A stretch of 64,000 nucleotides of DNA from a phage. Positions 35,022 to 50,866 of this stretch are shown here, piece after piece. Both the position numbers and the translations under genes were made by a program. The stretch lies in sequence record OZ335961.1. One strand, 5' to 3'. How positions within the stretch are numbered: position 1 is the first letter of the stretch; the number at the start of each line of letters is the position of its first letter. Under the pieces are notes generated by a model. The model did not search any database and was not told where the DNA came from. It was given only the letters and a program-made list of their open reading frames with translations.

Positions 35022-35209
35022 TATTCTTCTACATGTTGTTTACGACCTTTCTTATCAATAAAGGTATATTCAACGAATGTTCCAATATAGTCTTTATCTA
35101 CATTATGTGGACTATTAATTGGGCATTTAGTACGGCAAATGCGTTCCCATTGACGAATAACTTCTGCTTTGTTTTTAGGATCAAACGGATGCGGGTAATG
35201 TACTTTCAT
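34997..35209 (-). CDS. Hypothetical protein
   Basis: 70 aa tiled ORF. Confidence 0.45.
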   Translation of the reverse strand: MKVHYPHPFDPKNKAEVIRQWERICRTKCPINSPHNVDKDYIGTFVEYTFIDKKGRKQHVEEYCLKVTWL

Positions 35210-35660
35210 AATCCACCACTATTAAATCAATATCAGGAGTAAACATGTCGATTAATTTAGAAACCTTATCCCAATCACCGCCAGCAATACCACAACCTAT
35301 GCGTGGAATATAAATTACTGGTTTAAACAAAAGGGTTTCTGCCTGTTGATTTAATTCTATCATACAGTTTACTAAAGCACCATAATCAAGATTAGGACCC
35401 GGTTCGTATTGCGTATACAGGTTATAGCATATACCAAATCCCGTAGGATTATGTTTAAAAACAATAGACATATCGCCTAATTTATCACGAGAACCGTACT
35501 CGGTAGTGGTTTTATCTATTTCTAAAATTTTGGGATAGGCTCTTGCTAATTGACCTGCTACACCAGAGCCCATTGTGTGGAAGCAATTGCACCCGTGCGC
35601 AATAATATTACCTTGAAGAAATAGGGCGACAATATCGCCCTTGATATATTTTACAATCAT
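35181..35660 (-). CDS. Macro-domain-like protein (putative ADP-ribose binding/processing)
   Basis: 159 aa; motifs KGDIVA, HGCNCF..GSGVAGQLA, IGCGIAGG resemble macro domain signatures. Confidence 0.5.
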   Translation of the reverse strand: MIVKYIKGDIVALFLQGNIIAHGCNCFHTMGSGVAGQLARAYPKILEIDKTTTEYGSRDKLGDMSIVFKHNPTGFGICYNLYTQYEPGPNLDYGALVNCMIELNQQAETLLFKPVIYIPRIGCGIAGGDWDKVSKLIDMFTPDIDLIVVDYESTLPASV

Positions 35661-36004: not shown

Positions 36005-36542
36005 TTACTATTTCCAAAAGTTTATTATTTTTAAGGTAGTTAGCCTTTTCTAGGACTTCAGAAGCATATTTAGAACCTGCTTTAACATTCCATCCCGAAT
36101 TATAAGAGGATATTGCTTTTCTTATATCGCCCTTATGTATATTTAACCAATAAGAAAGTTCAATGTACGCCCAGGAAGCTGAATTGGACCGTTTATTCAA
36201 CATTCTTTTTATTTCAGCATCGGTCATATTATAACCAAGTTCCTTAACTCTTGCTCGCATGGTTGGCAAATAATTTTGGAACATTCCGTAGGCATGATGC
36301 TTTGGTTTAGATTTTAAATTAACTCCGGCAGAGCTTTCTTGCCATAAAATAGCAGCCATTATATGACCTAATCCGCTTTTGTGGATATTTTTGTGTGTTT
36401 TATATTTTCCATCCTTAGAAAATTGTTCCCCGAATTGATATGCGTAACGCATGTTATCGAGTTGGACATTACTGAAAGTATGCTCGGAGCTATGCGCCAT
36501 CATTGAAATGGCCAATAGACCAGCGAGTAGTGCTTTTCTCAT
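35997..36542 (-). CDS. Secreted lytic transglycosylase-like protein
   Basis: 181 aa; signal peptide; motifs WQESS and GMFQ typical of lysozyme-like Slt domains. Confidence 0.55.
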   Translation of the reverse strand: MRKALLAGLLAISMMAHSSEHTFSNVQLDNMRYAYQFGEQFSKDGKYKTHKNIHKSGLGHIMAAILWQESSAGVNLKSKPKHHAYGMFQNYLPTMRARVKELGYNMTDAEIKRMLNKRSNSASWAYIELSYWLNIHKGDIRKAISSYNSGWNVKAGSKYASEVLEKANYLKNNKLLEIVND

Positions 36543-36549
36543 GCTTACC

Positions 36550-37011
36550 TCATTGAGTTTTAATTACTGCTTTAGAAGCCTTTCCTGGTAAACGACGACT
36601 GTTGATAATTGCCATCCTGCACTGAAGTGACGGGTCTTTGAACTTCGCATTAGGTTTACAAACTGTAAATCCAAGCCAAAGATTTCCATCTGTGATTTCT
36701 AAACGTCCAGGACGATATTCGACCCCATCAATAAAATCCTCGTCAATGTCAGGACGCGGAGGCATACTCAAGAATTCATTAACTTCTAAAACATGGTCTT
36801 TTATTTTGTGGAATAATTCAAAAACATATGTCTCATCAATCTCCCGCTGAATTGCACGATCAAGAAGATGCTGAGAATATTTTAGATGAAACGATGAGAC
36901 TCCTGCTGCTTTTGATGCCTCACGAATCTCATTGTTAATTTGACGAAACTCCGACTCAAAGTGACGACGGAGCTTATTTCGACGGATAAAAACTTCTGTG
37001 TTGATAGTCAT
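36550..37011 (-). CDS. regB: RegB endoribonuclease
   Basis: 153 aa, near-identical to T4 RegB as recalled. Confidence 0.93.
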   Translation of the reverse strand: MTINTEVFIRRNKLRRHFESEFRQINNEIREASKAAGVSSFHLKYSQHLLDRAIQREIDETYVFELFHKIKDHVLEVNEFLSMPPRPDIDEDFIDGVEYRPGRLEITDGNLWLGFTVCKPNAKFKDPSLQCRMAIINSRRLPGKASKAVIKTQ

Positions 37012-37037
37012 GTTATTCTCCTCTTAACTGATAGAAA

Positions 37038-37069
37038 AATTATACCACAGTCAAGAGGAAAAGTAAACA
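37038..37069 (-). promoter_or_regulatory. T4-type early promoter for regB
   Basis: GTTTACT then 17 nt then TGTGGTATAAT. Confidence 0.55.
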
Positions 37070-37070
37070 G

Positions 37071-37349
37071 TTATTCTTTAAATCTAATCAATTTATTCAT
37101 AGACTTTGAAACTTCTGCACGGACCTCATGTAGGTTTTTAAGCTGTTCAAGACGTTGCTCATAGTAAGCAATTTCATCTTCTTCAAGACAGTCCTGTGAA
37201 TCTTCTTTAAGATAACGTGCATAGTCCTGGAAAGCTTTACGGACTACTTCTTGGAAGTCATCAAGACTTTGAATTTTCTTAGGAGCAACAGATACACGAC
37301 GAGGGGCAGTATAATACTCATAACCAAACCCTGCGCTTAATTGAGCCAT
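37071..37349 (-). CDS. Hypothetical protein
   Basis: ATG 37349 ([13 protein letters not shown]...) coupled to upstream stop; ORF-track start 37391 overlaps the upstream gene. Confidence 0.5.
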
Positions 37350-37615
37350 TAGTATTTTTCCTCTGGTTGGAACACAGCACGACAAGCCCACATACTGGCT
37401 TCTTTGAGTTTCGTTTTAGCAATAGTTAACTGATCGAGGCTTTCAGCATAATTCTTCGTGAATTCACAGTCTTCACAATTATCTAGTGCTTCCCAGAATT
37501 CATCATATAAAGCATCAAAGATAAGTCCTAAACGAACTTCAGCATCTTTGATAGCATTCACTTTACTGATTTTATCGTCAGTATGTGGCTTATAACCTTT
37601 AATATCTTCAATCAT
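37349..37615 (-). CDS. Small acidic protein at the T4 vs.4 position (possible Acb2-like sponge)
   Basis: 88 aa; position in the regB-ipII gene block; identification from gene order only, not sequence-verified. Confidence 0.4.
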
Positions 37616-37829
37616 ATTCTACTTCCTCACCAGTGCCCAAATCATATTCAACTAAACGAATAGGTTCATGAATGCCATATCCTTGAACAGAAATTTCTGT
37701 TGTAGGATAAATTCCATTAATATCACCCATGTTCCATGCTTCATTAAATTGCTGTTCGCCTGAATTACTAAACCATTCGGCGAAAGCATTTAACACATCT
37801 TCAGAACCTTCAATAATTATCTTTGCCAT
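37608..37829 (-). CDS. Hypothetical acidic protein
   Basis: 73 aa tiled ORF. Confidence 0.5.
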   Translation of the reverse strand: MAKIIIEGSEDVLNAFAEWFSNSGEQQFNEAWNMGDINGIYPTTEISVQGYGIHEPIRLVEYDLGTGEEVEYD

Positions 37830-38191
37830 TACAAGCTCTCAGTAAAGGTACGAGCAATAACGTCGCGTTGCTGTTCCGGAGTCAGAGAGTTAAAGCGAAC
37901 TGCATATCCGGATACACGGATGGTCAGCTGCGGATATTTTTCCGGATGCTTAACTGCATCTTCCAGAGTTTCACGACGCAGAACGTTAACGTTCAGGTGT
38001 TGACCACCTTCAATTTTAACTGTAGGTTGTGTTTCAATTTCAATTTCACGGGTGTGCAAACCGTAGAAAATTTCTGGGTCTACAAAAGAGTCCTCTTTAA
38101 AGGTTTTAGAAACAATAATTCGTGCTTGAATACCATCTTCAAAATAAATAGTACCTTTATGTGTGCCTTCAAGAATTTGATATGCTTTCAT
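37829..38191 (-). CDS. Autonomous glycyl radical cofactor (GrcA/YfiD-like)
   Basis: 120 aa; C-terminus [29 protein letters not shown] matches E. coli GrcA glycyl radical region. Confidence 0.85.
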
Positions 38192-38198
38192 ATAAACC

Positions 38199-38528
38199 TC
38201 AATTAGAAAATAAATTTATCCAAGATTGCTCTTTAATTAAAAATGGCTCAGAATCATATGCCATTAAACTTTGGGTGATTAGTCCTTTAAAAGGTCCATC
38301 AATAAATTCCATGGTAAAATACGGAATTTTATTCATTAATCTTGCATTAGGAGCAGTACACAAAACTCTGCATCCTTTGAATACGCCTTTTTGTAATTTG
38401 TACTGCTTAGGATAAAATTCGCTCAAGACGTTATTATTTGCTAAAATTTCAAAATGATTCACCAATTTATTTTTAATAGTTTTTGGCGAAAAATAAAGAT
38501 ATTCGAAAAGTTGCGTATCTGTCATCAT
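38199..38528 (-). CDS. Hypothetical protein
   Basis: Likely start [12 protein letters not shown] near 38528. Confidence 0.45.
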
Positions 38529-39112
38529 TGCATTCCAATTACGAAAAACTGCGGACGAGTAATACCACCAATGCAGCATTTACTATTGCAGCAGTGTTGC
38601 ACAGTTTCAATATGAATATCATAAATTTTATCCATATCAGGAGATTTAACAGGCTCATCGATTATATACAAAATTCGAGAAAGCGATAAACCTCTGAACT
38701 TGCTACCTCTATTACCAACAAAACTACGGACAGAATCGGTAAATAAGCGGAATCGAATATCATCGCTAGAATAACGAGAAAATTCTTTTTTAATGTGGCC
38801 CGCAGAAATTTTAGCGTAAGCTGAAGTATTAGAAAGAACAATAACTGTTCCACCATCATATAACCAATTAGCGGCAAAATTAGTTACTGCAGTTGATTTA
38901 CCAGATTGACGTCCACCATCTAGTCGAAGTGTGCAATACTGTTTGAGTAAGTCTTCAAATGGTGGGATATAATCGTTTTTACAAATTTCTTCTACTCTAG
39001 CATCAGAATGGTGTGTAAAAGCATTCATCAGGGATAGATAAGGACCAGTTAAAAATGTTCTCATTTTATTCTCTCTAAATTTGGGCCATTCCATGGCGCA
39101 TGAATTATCCAT
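38525..39112 (-). CDS. P-loop NTPase of unknown function at the position where T4 has denV
   Basis: Walker A GGRQSGKST, Walker B-like ILYIIDE; likely start MRTFLTG at about 39064. Confidence 0.55.
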   Translation of the reverse strand: MDNSCAMEWPKFRENKMRTFLTGPYLSLMNAFTHHSDARVEEICKNDYIPPFEDLLKQYCTLRLDGGRQSGKSTAVTNFAANWLYDGGTVIVLSNTSAYAKISAGHIKKEFSRYSSDDIRFRLFTDSVRSFVGNRGSKFRGLSLSRILYIIDEPVKSPDMDKIYDIHIETVQHCCNSKCCIGGITRPQFFVIGMQ

Positions 39113-39205
39113 TTCTGTATTTACCCATTACCGCACTTGGGCTCGACCTTATTACAGGTTGGCGGGAATCCCTCATAGAATCATGAGGTCCAGCTTGTTC
39201 CCATG

Positions 39206-39508
39206 TTATTTGCCTTTAATTACTTTAGCTGCTTCGATAGCCGCTTGCTGAAGGTCATCCATAGACATACCGAATTTAGAAGCAAAGTTATCAATTTTCT
39301 TTTCGACGGCATTCAAAGGCTTGGCCTGTTTACCTTCATTAGCGCCAGGAAGAGCGAGAATACGCTCTTTGTCAATATAAAGGCTTACAAGTTTCTTACG
39401 GTCTTTATCGGACAAATCATGAAATGAATGGGCCTTTTTATTTATAGCGGCTTCTAATTTACCTGCACTCACTCGCGCTTCAGTAATAAATTCTTGATAT
39501 GTTTTCAT
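39206..39508 (-). CDS. ipII: Internal protein II
   Basis: 100 aa; N-terminal capsid-targeting sequence MKTYQEFITEA; adjacent to ipIII and e as in T4. Confidence 0.75.
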   Translation of the reverse strand: MKTYQEFITEARVSAGKLEAAINKKAHSFHDLSDKDRKKLVSLYIDKERILALPGANEGKQAKPLNAVEKKIDNFASKFGMSMDDLQQAAIEAAKVIKGK

Positions 39509-39549
39509 ATGTTTCCTTTAAATGTAAATAGGCCTAAGTATCGGCCTTA

Positions 39550-40125
39550 TTAATTACCACGGGCTGCATTAGCAACGGCGTAAGCGTACTGAACATTAGC
39601 GTCTTTAAACGTACCTTTAGAGGTATCTAGTTCTGCCTTAAAGCCGCCTTTAGTCATAACCTCAGCGAATTCTTTACGGAAAGCCATTGCATCAAGACCT
39701 TTCCATGTCGATTTGTGCTTGGCGAATTCAAGACCAGCGTAGTTGACAGCCTTAGCCAATTTATTGTCAATAACCCATTTACCTGCTTTAGGCACAAACA
39801 CCGGGCCTTTCTGTTTAGAGAACAGTTTTAAATTCCAGCGACGAAGATCACCGTCAGCTTTAACAAAAGCTGCGTCCAAGTTACTAGCAACAACATCTTG
39901 AATATGGCCAAATTTAAGCCCATCAACTTCAATATTTAGATCGGTACGCCAGCGAAGTCCTTCCCAAGCGAAAGCTTTAAAGTCGGAAGCTTTTGTAGCT
40001 AAGTATCGTTCAATAGGGGCTGTTTTAGGGTCAAAACCGTTTCCTCGGTAAGTCCACTCATCTTTATTAATGCCTTTGGCCTTTTCCACAGAAGCTTCAG
40101 CGATAAATTCTTTATACGTTTTCAT
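39550..40125 (-). CDS. ipIII: Internal protein III
   Basis: 191 aa; capsid-targeting sequence MKTYKEFIAEA; basic protein. Confidence 0.75.
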   Translation of the reverse strand: MKTYKEFIAEASVEKAKGINKDEWTYRGNGFDPKTAPIERYLATKASDFKAFAWEGLRWRTDLNIEVDGLKFGHIQDVVASNLDAAFVKADGDLRRWNLKLFSKQKGPVFVPKAGKWVIDNKLAKAVNYAGLEFAKHKSTWKGLDAMAFRKEFAEVMTKGGFKAELDTSKGTFKDANVQYAYAVANAARGN

Positions 40126-45763: not shown

Positions 45764-45839
45764 TGGTCGAGGCAGTAGGGATCGAACCTACGACCTAGGA
45801 CTTAGAAGGTCCTTGCTCTTCCTTCTGAGCTATGCCTCG
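45764..45839 (-). tRNA. tRNA-Arg (anticodon UCU)
   Basis: Manual cloverleaf: 7-bp acceptor CGAGGCA/TGCCTCG, T-loop TTCGATC, anticodon loop CUUCUAA, CCA encoded. Confidence 0.8.
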
Positions 45840-45843
45840 TATT

Positions 45844-45918
45844 TGGCGGACATGCATGGATTCGAACCATGGACCAATTGATTAACAGTCAACTGCTCTA
45901 CCACTGAGCTACACATCC
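45844..45918 (-). tRNA. tRNA-Asn (anticodon GUU)
   Basis: Manual cloverleaf: D-arm GCTCAGTGGTAGAGC, anticodon loop CUGUUAA, T-loop TTCGAAT, CCA encoded. Confidence 0.75.
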
Positions 45919-45922
45919 AAAT

Positions 45923-46009
45923 TGGTGGGGAGTGGTGGAGTCGAACCACCCGAGTCGCAATGACAATGGATTTACAGTCCACACCGCTACCTCTACGGGA
46001 TAACTCCCC
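45923..46009 (-). tRNA. tRNA-Tyr (anticodon GUA), long variable arm
   Basis: Manual cloverleaf: acceptor GGGGAGT/ACTCCCC, anticodon loop CUGUAAA, 15-nt extra arm, CCA encoded. Confidence 0.7.
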
Positions 46010-46018
46010 AAATTAATT

Positions 46019-46093
46019 TGGTGGCCCTGGGTGGAATTGAACCACCGTCTGGCGATTATGAGTCGCTTGCTTGAACCTTCCAGCTACAGGGCC
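46019..46093 (-). tRNA. tRNA with anticodon CAU (Ile or Met)
   Basis: Manual cloverleaf: acceptor GGCCCTG/CAGGGCC, anticodon loop CUCAUAA, CCA encoded. Confidence 0.7.
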
Positions 46094-46094
46094 T

Positions 46095-46170
46095 TGGTGC
46101 TGATTGACGGAATCGAACCGCCGACCTTCTCATTACAAGTGAGTTGCTCTACCTACTGAGCTAAATCAGC
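46095..46170 (-). tRNA. tRNA-Thr (anticodon UGU)
   Basis: Manual cloverleaf: D-arm GCTCAGTAGGTAGAGC, anticodon loop CUUGUAA, CCA encoded. Confidence 0.8.
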
Positions 46171-46175
46171 AAAAC

Positions 46176-46265
46176 TGGCGGAGGCGATAGGATTTGAACC
46201 TATGAGTCGCCGGAGCGACTGCCGGTTTTCAAGACCGGTGCATTAAACCACTCTGCCACGCCTCC
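46176..46265 (-). tRNA. tRNA-Ser (anticodon UGA), long variable arm
   Basis: Manual cloverleaf: acceptor GGAGGCG, anticodon loop CUUGAAA, T-loop TTCAAAT, CCA encoded. Confidence 0.8.
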
Positions 46266-46271
46266 AAATAT

Positions 46272-46880
46272 TTATATATTGTTAATTTGATTTAGAATTC
46301 TTTTTGCTTGAGTATGACTTACGCCAATATGCTTAGCATATTTAGATAATTCACCGCGCTTAGAAAAATCATATAATTTAGAAATTTCTATTCTTCTTTT
46401 TCTTTCATCCGCAGAAACTTTTGCTTCGTTCGCTTTTGCTATTTTACGTTTAGCTTCTTGAGAATGAGTTTTACCAGCAAAGCCATTCTTCATTAATCCA
46501 TTTGAAGACCATCCTTTTAATTTTCCGTTAGAATGTGCCTTTTTAACACCCAATGAAATTAATTCGCGTTGCTGATCTGTCATAGGATAATTATTTATAT
46601 GATCCCATCCACCTTCACCGCCAAGTTTTAAATTATACACATCTGGTCTATTTAAAAACTCTTCTGTAACAATATTTTTCTCGGCTTCAAGCATAGATTC
46701 TTTATCATCAAAATACTCTAATATTTCTTTAGAGAAATTTTCTATACCATACTTATCTTGGGCTCGTTTTAATAATTTACCAGAACCCATATATCCATCA
46801 TCTAAATTTTCGGTAGAATGCACACCAATATAAATTTTATTATTAATTTTATTTGTTATTTTATAAAGATAAAAATGCAT
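46272..46880 (-). CDS. GIY-YIG homing endonuclease (Seg-like) inside the tRNA cluster
   Basis: Motifs FYLYKITN..KIYIGV; ATG 46880 with SD AGGGA; ORF-track start 46922 would abut tRNA-Gly. Confidence 0.8.
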   Translation of the reverse strand: MHFYLYKITNKINNKIYIGVHSTENLDDGYMGSGKLLKRAQDKYGIENFSKEILEYFDDKESMLEAEKNIVTEEFLNRPDVYNLKLGGEGGWDHINNYPMTDQQRELISLGVKKAHSNGKLKGWSSNGLMKNGFAGKTHSQEAKRKIAKANEAKVSADERKRRIEISKLYDFSKRGELSKYAKHIGVSHTQAKRILNQINNI

Positions 46881-46926
46881 ATCAGTCCCTAATAAAGAAC
46901 TGAGCGTCTCACGACGAGTCATAAAT

Positions 46927-47000
<74 letters not shown>

Positions 47001-47005
47001 AAATT

Positions 47006-47092
47006 TGGTGCGAGAAGTGGGACTCGAACCCACAAGGAAATCATTCCGCAGCATTTTAAGTGCTGTGCCTTTACCAATTTGACCATTCTCGC
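47006..47092 (-). tRNA. tRNA-Leu (anticodon UAA), long variable arm
   Basis: Manual cloverleaf: acceptor GCGAGAA/TTCTCGC, anticodon loop CUUAAAA, CCA encoded. Confidence 0.8.
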
Positions 47093-47093
47093 G

Positions 47094-47166
47094 CTGGGAA
47101 TAAAGGACTCGAACCTTTGCATCCTGGAATCAAAATCCAGTGCCTTACCAACTTGGCTAATTCCCA
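47094..47166 (-). tRNA. tRNA-Gln (anticodon UUG), CCA not encoded
   Basis: Manual cloverleaf: acceptor TGGGAAT/ATTCCCA, D-arm GCCAAGTTGGTAAGGC, anticodon loop UUUUGAU. Confidence 0.75.
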
Positions 47167-49394: not shown

Positions 49395-50091
<697 letters not shown>

Positions 50092-50817: not shown

Positions 50818-50866
50818 ATGTTTCTCCTCAAATTTAGTTAAGATTATAACACATGAAACTGAAGCA

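Follow-up and report, generated by a model that had tools for sequence, protein, structure and literature searches.

The questions raised by this locus are whether a small acidic reading frame of a T4-like phage encodes the sponge Acb2 (anti-CBASS 2), which ligands such a sponge would bind and whether the gene is a working copy. The window, i.e. the whole stretch of phage DNA that was analysed (64,000 nucleotides of sequence record OZ335961.1), carries the frame at the position of T4 vs.4, and a preliminary description had tentatively assigned it to Acb2 on the grounds of gene order and size. The intactness of vs.4 was worth checking as well, because broken natural alleles of this gene exist.

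The coding sequence of vs.4/acb2 extends over 37349..37615 on the minus strand, from the ATG at 37615-37613 to the TAA at 37351-37349, and comprises 88 codons and a stop. The acidic 88-aa frame that had been described earlier, without its strand, was thus found exactly there, and the computed pI of 4.62 (10.2 kDa) agrees with its acidic character. A Shine-Dalgarno sequence GAGGA (37624..37628, minus strand) can be read from the sequence 8 nt 5' of the ATG, within the 3' end of vs.5, and is also kept in T4 and T2. The start of vs.4 overlaps the stop of vs.5 by 8 nt (ATGATTGA), and its own stop overlaps the start of vs.3 by 1 nt (TAATG). Such tight packing with overlapping genes is usual in the early gene clusters of T4.

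Scanning of the region 36400..39700 for σ70-type promoters and terminators gave a number of sites not above that in shuffled sequence, and the sole strong minus-strand σ70-type site (37067..37039) lies downstream of vs.4, ahead of regB. The MotA-box pattern of middle promoters (TGCTTYA and TANNNT, 11-13 nt apart) had no match from vs.4 to the lysozyme gene e. Since the promoter scans located none that would serve vs.4, we infer its expression from the operon structure and translational coupling. Over the whole window, the MotA-box pattern occurred 15 times versus 2.5 expected from shuffles; the site at 50841..50866 (minus strand), just upstream of gene 1, could drive a unit consisting of 1-57A-57B(acb1).

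The gene order tk.4-vs-vs.1-regB-vs.3-vs.4-vs.5-vs.6-vs.7-vs.8-ipII, all on the minus strand, is that of a T4-like phage (Tequatrovirus) and equals that of the annotated T4T genome except that vs.8 and ipII have no denV between them. In comparison with T4T, SP1, F25 and T2, vs.4 occupies the same slot between vs.3 and vs.5 on the same strand, so that the position in the regB–ipII block which had been proposed for it is borne out by synteny with T4T. The upstream neighbour at 37608..37829 (minus strand) is a vs.5 homologue (PHROG 1986, E=1.7e-42; T4T annotation), and the downstream neighbour at 37071..37349 (minus strand) is a vs.3 homologue (PHROG 2037; T4T and SP1) with its true start at the ATG 37349-37347. 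A start of vs.3 at the GTG 37391, as in the listed frame 37071..37391 (106 aa, overlapping vs.4 by 43 nt), was rejected: homology gives the ATG at 37349 and a product of 92 aa, the listed frame matches PHROG 2037 only from residue 36 onwards, and both T4T and SP1 are annotated with a vs.3 of 279 nt. The endoribonuclease gene regB (36550..37011, minus strand; Pfam PF10715 REGB_T4, E=1.4e-68) served as a further synteny anchor. The remaining minus-strand neighbours include vs (tRNA-synthetase modifier), vs.1 with an SLT domain, vs.7, vs.8, ipII, ipIII and the lysozyme gene e. A preprint on an ‘ejectosome’ anti-CBASS function, considered for its relevance to ipII and ipIII, was set aside as it deals with the T7-like Gp15. 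The DNA of the vs.4 region is 95-97% identical to many Tequatrovirus genomes, the closest over 36500-39600 being vB_EcoM_SP1 (97.1%).

Several other features of this neighbourhood deserve mention in their own right. The tk.4 homologue (35181..35660, minus strand) contains a Macro domain (PF01661, E=1.5e-8). Since the substrates of Macro domains are ADP-ribose derivatives, tk.4 might conceivably counteract host signalling or toxins that are based on ADP-ribose. The vs.6 gene (37829..38191, minus strand; 120 aa), two genes upstream of acb2, ends in a glycine-radical domain (PF01228, E=2e-18) and its product is a GrcA/YfiD-like ‘spare part’ for glycyl-radical enzymes damaged by oxygen. The vs.8 gene (38525..39176, minus strand) is frameshifted with respect to T4: residues 1-36 of Vs.8 correspond to 39176..39069 and residues 34-216 to 39079..38528 in another frame, and the open frame of 195 aa starts from 39112, as in SP1, whose annotation wrongly calls it ‘large terminase subunit’. 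No match to T4 DenV (endonuclease V, a pyrimidine-dimer glycosylase) was obtained by tblastn in the 64-kb window; the gap between vs.8 and ipII (39113..39205) corresponds to the denV site of T4, and SP1 and F25 have an ‘endonuclease’ of about 137 aa annotated beyond ipIII instead. The tRNA cluster at 45764..47166 (minus strand) consists of nine genes (Arg, Asn, Tyr, Met(CAT), Thr, Ser, Gly, Leu and Gln). Like that of T2, it includes Asn and Tyr; tRNA-Pro, which T2 has between Ser and Gly, was not detected in the cluster, where Ser (46265) and Gly (46927) are about 660 nt apart.

The sequence of the vs.4 product itself clearly assigned it to Acb2. A phmmer search of all PDB chains matched it over residues 1-88 to 7UQ2 ‘Vs.4’ (E=3.1e-55), with 84 of 88 residues identical. 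The alignment to T4 Vs.4/Acb2 that had been suggested as a check therefore gave close identity and not the lack of similarity that was to count against the assignment. The match to Acb2 of the Pseudomonas phage PaMx33 (8H2J, 8IXZ) was also full-length but weak (E about 0.08). In Pfam, the family Acb2_Tad1_hairpin (PF24729) was found with 70.6 bits (E=1.3e-19; gathering score 27) over the complete profile (1-58 of 58). The AlphaFold2 monomer model, built from a family alignment of 69 sequences, is a two-helix hairpin (helices 13-46 and 50-81; pLDDT 87.4), and its best PDB matches in Foldseek were the 7UQ2 chains (E=3e-11, TM 0.80), followed by PaMx33 Acb2 8H2X/8H2J (TM 0.72-0.77). Homologues were detected by tblastn in 1238 phage records, chiefly of Escherichia, Klebsiella and Shigella phages, of which only Escherichia phage vB_Eco_F25 encodes a 100% identical protein, and the wider protein database provided 148 cluster representatives, nearly all of them with PF24729. 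NCBIfam, which has a model for neither Acb2 nor Acb1, was uninformative, and PHROGs assigned the protein to phrog_717 of ‘unknown function’, the library being older than the Acb2 work. What had been proposed from gene order and size is thus supported by sequence, family, fold and, as described below, residues.

The residues that matter for the function of T4 Vs.4 have been defined by Jenson et al. (2023, PMC10097602). Base stacking is provided by Y8 and F82, and hydrogen bonds and salt bridges by Y8, H11, K23 and R79; S74 is located at the ligand, and T12 caps the helix. The hexamer interface is formed by L29, A66, A73 and A77 together with F33. Mutations at Y8, F82, L29, A66, A73 and A77 abolished or lowered cGAMP binding and CapV inhibition, and F33A destabilised the hexamer, nothing more (PMC10097602). 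All of the ligand-site residues (Y8, H11, T12, K23, S74, R79 and F82) are present in the protein from the window, and the five interface residues are all the same as in T4. Among 119 cluster representatives, Y8, H11, K23, S74, R79 and F82 are each at least 98% conserved and T12 is 95% conserved.

The four substitutions with respect to the T4T product, E13D, E14D, G17S and A53T, are at naturally variable columns of the alignment. D13 and D14 are the majority residues of the family (73% and 62% of the 119 representatives, respectively), and S17 occurs in 9% of them. Column 53 is among the most variable (D, N, A, E, K), with Thr in none of the 119 representatives; T53 was found in one phage record alone, that of vB_Eco_F25. 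At the DNA level, 12 of 267 nt differ between the window and T4, 8 of the changes being synonymous and 4 non-synonymous, which corresponds to a dN/dS of 0.10 (Nei-Gojobori); the values were 0.03 in comparison with SP1 and 0 with F25. Considering the intact frame, the retained residues and the low dN/dS, vs.4 of the window is intact and under purifying selection.

These data decide against two simple objections. The first, that the reading frame is a chance or mis-called one and the real gene lies on the opposite strand, e.g. as the 45-aa frame 37458..37595 (plus strand) which overlaps the region, has a negligible probability: full-length homologues of the minus-strand product occur in the 1238 phage records, one of them (T4 Vs.4) has been crystallised, the minus strand also carries all of the neighbouring genes, and the pattern of synonymous and non-synonymous changes agrees with the minus-strand frame. 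Homologues, structure and substitution pattern together rule the chance-frame or wrong-strand reading out. The second objection, that vs.4 has decayed and is kept only by position, has real precedents among close relatives, in which loss-of-function acb2 alleles occur naturally: PaMx41 has a premature stop, and the acb2 of T2 is a natural loss-of-binding allele (PMC12657218). We saw the T2 lesion directly in the locus alignment, where a 2-nt deletion within the G7-Y8 codons of vs.4 (NC_054931) converts GGTTAT to GG--AT and shifts the frame at Y8. The annotation of T2 vs.4 (NC_054931 10591..10860) accordingly gives an 86-aa frame from a TTG, which is without the stacking residue Y8; T2 vs.5 is truncated too (138 nt annotated vs 222 nt in the window). 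In the window, however, all 88 codons are open behind a good Shine-Dalgarno sequence, start and stop are coupled to the neighbours, Y8 and every other functional residue are retained, and the dN/dS relative to T4 indicates ongoing purifying selection. A non-functional vs.4 is therefore very improbable, and the open frame, the retained Y8 and the low dN/dS rule out a dead allele of the T2 type.

A slightly less remote alternative, though still an improbable one, is that the Acb2 fold has been conserved and its ligand spectrum shifted by E13D, E14D and G17S near the pocket and A53T at the hairpin tip. The protein might then have moved away from 2',3'-c-di-AMP, the decoy of Panoptes, gained trinucleotides or acquired 3'cADPR (anti-Thoeris). 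The spectrum does vary among Acb2 homologues (PMC10312549), 3'cADPR is bound by ten distant ones (PMC12393519), and selection on Acb2 specificity was predicted in the Panoptes study (PMC12657218). Positions 13, 14 and 17 are in the first turns of helix 1, right after H11 and the T12 cap, i.e. near the ligand site. T53 is rare, being found only in the one record with an identical protein, and helical periodicity would place residue 53 on the face of helix 2 that carries A57, L60/D61 and T64 and lines the vestigial trinucleotide pocket. The rarity of T53 and the substitutions near the ligand site therefore make small shifts in affinity or ligand preference possible. On the other hand, the protein is 95% identical to T4-Acb2 with all named contacts identical, and D13, D14 and S17 are common natural variants. 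In the monomer model, residue 53, at the closed tip of the hairpin, is remote from the dinucleotide site, with about 20 residues of helix 2 between it and S74, R79 and F82. The residues of the trinucleotide pocket (Y37, A57, L60, D61, T64 and T68) are unchanged, binding was not rescued in T4 even by D61R (PMC10312549), and the bulk added by A53T would narrow a pocket, not widen one. A particular form of this idea, that A53T together with D13, D14 and S17 leaves the sponging of CBASS cGAMP in place and weakens the binding of the Panoptes decoy 2',3'-c-di-AMP, has a still smaller probability; if true, the phage would have solved the ‘CBASS versus Panoptes’ dilemma by specificity and not by gene loss as in T2.

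With these alternatives weighed, we consider it highly probable that 37349..37615 is the orthologue of T4 vs.4/acb2 and encodes a cyclic-dinucleotide sponge with the mechanism known from T4. Hexamer formation, ligand spectrum, affinity and in vivo effects are expected to follow those of the 95%-identical T4 protein. T4-Acb2 is a hexamer which holds three molecules of cGAMP and inhibits CapV (PMC10097602); its Kd for 3',3'-cGAMP was reported to be about 30 nM (PMC10097602) or about 84 nM (PMC10312549). The bound signal is withheld and is freed intact on proteolysis, which identifies the protein as a sponge and not an enzyme (PMC10097602; PMC12657218).

The assignment to T4-type Acb2 also narrows the ligand range. 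The dinucleotide range of T4-Acb2 is the same as that of PaMx33 Acb2, and cA3 and cAAG are unbound (PMC10312549). In the broad-spectrum Acb2 proteins, the equivalents of R67 and T74 line a pocket on the three-fold axis, whereas T4-Acb2 has D61 where the essential Arg stands, the lining helix is unkinked, and Y37, A57, L60, D61 and T64 would clash with a trinucleotide (PMC10312549). The exchange D61R fails to restore cA3 binding in T4-Acb2 because the helix geometry differs (PMC10312549). Y37, A57, L60, D61, T64 and T68 of the protein from the window are the same as in T4-Acb2, and the Arg and Thr which are characteristic of the broad-spectrum (PaMx33/JBD67-type) proteins at the R67 and T74 equivalents are replaced by D61 and T68. 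Since the T4-type pocket residues are kept, the term ‘cyclic-oligonucleotide sponge’ used in the preliminary description should be narrowed to ‘cyclic-dinucleotide sponge’: the sponge family was recognized correctly, but the wording was too broad for a D61/T68 pocket. By analogy with T4, the protein is not expected to bind cA3 or cAAG.

Cyclic trinucleotides are probably dealt with by the product of a second gene. The frame at 49395..49850 (minus strand) encodes a protein of 151 aa that is 100% identical to T4 57B (X03016.1) and matches Pfam Acb1 (PF23474, E=2.6e-60) as well as PDB 7T26 Acb1 (E=4e-62), i.e. the 2H-type phosphodiesterase which degrades cyclic oligonucleotides. Its neighbours are those of T4, 57A and gene 1. 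The HxT/HxT catalytic tetrad of Acb1 was defined by Hobbs et al. (2022, PMC9117128), and both motifs are present as H43-S-T45 and H112-I-T114 (numbering of the 151-aa protein). The Acb1-type 57B that had been located at these positions was thereby confirmed by identity, family and motifs. The further suggestion that the phage has a second anti-CBASS gene also holds, 57B being Acb1 by sequence, although the pairing of Acb1 and Acb2 in T4 is already published (PMC10312549). As judged from the two sequences, the phage carries a predicted sponge and a predicted nuclease with partly complementary spectra.

The mechanism can be proposed on the model of T4. The 10-kDa Acb2 would fold as a two-helix hairpin, and six copies would interlock to a hexamer with three pockets, each built at the open hairpin ends by a pair of protomers and accommodating one cyclic dinucleotide. 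The predicted ligands are 3',3'-cGAMP and, by analogy with T4, 2',3'-/3',2'-cGAMP, c-di-AMP, cUA and similar molecules, which would be held by stacking on Y8 and F82 and by hydrogen bonds or salt bridges from Y8, H11, K23 and R79. Sequestration of the signal of the host CD-NTase would keep CBASS effectors such as CapV silent, so that the phage would escape abortive infection; the signal molecule would be retained by Acb2, not degraded. The trinucleotides cA3 and cAAG would be left to the nuclease Acb1 (57B). By binding dinucleotides, Acb2 should also expose the phage to Panoptes (OptSE), which senses the loss of its decoy 2',3'-c-di-AMP. T4-Acb2 binds this decoy with a Kd of about 62 nM, its depletion triggers OptSE, and T4 escapers of Panoptes carry acb2 loss-of-function mutations (PMC12657218). 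As T4-Acb2 triggers Panoptes, the same liability is predicted for the phage studied here.

It follows as a set of predictions that the phage should evade CBASS systems signalling with cGAMP or other dinucleotides by means of the sponge and some trinucleotide CBASS systems by means of the Acb1 nuclease, and that, unlike T2-type phages with a broken acb2, it should be sensitive in hosts with Panoptes (OptSE). These predictions bear on host range and on the choice of strains for phage therapy. The locus departs nowhere from published knowledge and is therefore to be regarded as already known: acb2 is well studied and nothing unusual in T4-like phages, and its presence in the window implies no new mechanism. 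The value of the analysis is chiefly in annotation. The vs.4 frame is a ‘hypothetical protein’ in the records of most relatives, SP1, F25 and many others among them; the name acb2 can safely be given to it, and the name acb1 to 49395..49850.

Acb2 belongs with Acb1 (57B), Tad1 and Tad2 to the phage proteins which neutralise nucleotide immune signals. It shares with Tad1 the hairpin domain that defines PF24729, whereas gcADPR is the primary ligand of Tad1 and Tad2. Acb2 of PaMx33 (8H2J/8H2X/8IXZ; Huiting et al. 2023; Cao et al., PMC10312549) has the same hairpin fold and Pfam family as the protein from the window at about 20-24% identity, its Y11 and K26 are equivalent to Y8 and K23, and the sponge mechanism of a hexamer with three dinucleotides would be common to both. 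PaMx33 Acb2 differs in having a second pocket (R67, T74 and a kinked helix) which binds cA3 and cAAG with nM affinity and which the T4 type does not have. Closer relatives differ in other ways. T2 shares the locus, and its vs.4 DNA is nearly the same, but its Y8 codon is destroyed, whereas the allele in the window is of the intact T4 type. In vB_Eco_F25, the Vs.4 protein is identical and vs.4 shows four synonymous differences, whereas the region upstream of vs.7 differs. With T4 Vs.4 (7UQ2), the protein studied here has in common the length of 88 aa, the slot between vs.3 and vs.5, the contact and interface residues and D61/T68; the two are distinguished by the four substitutions among the 12 nucleotide differences.
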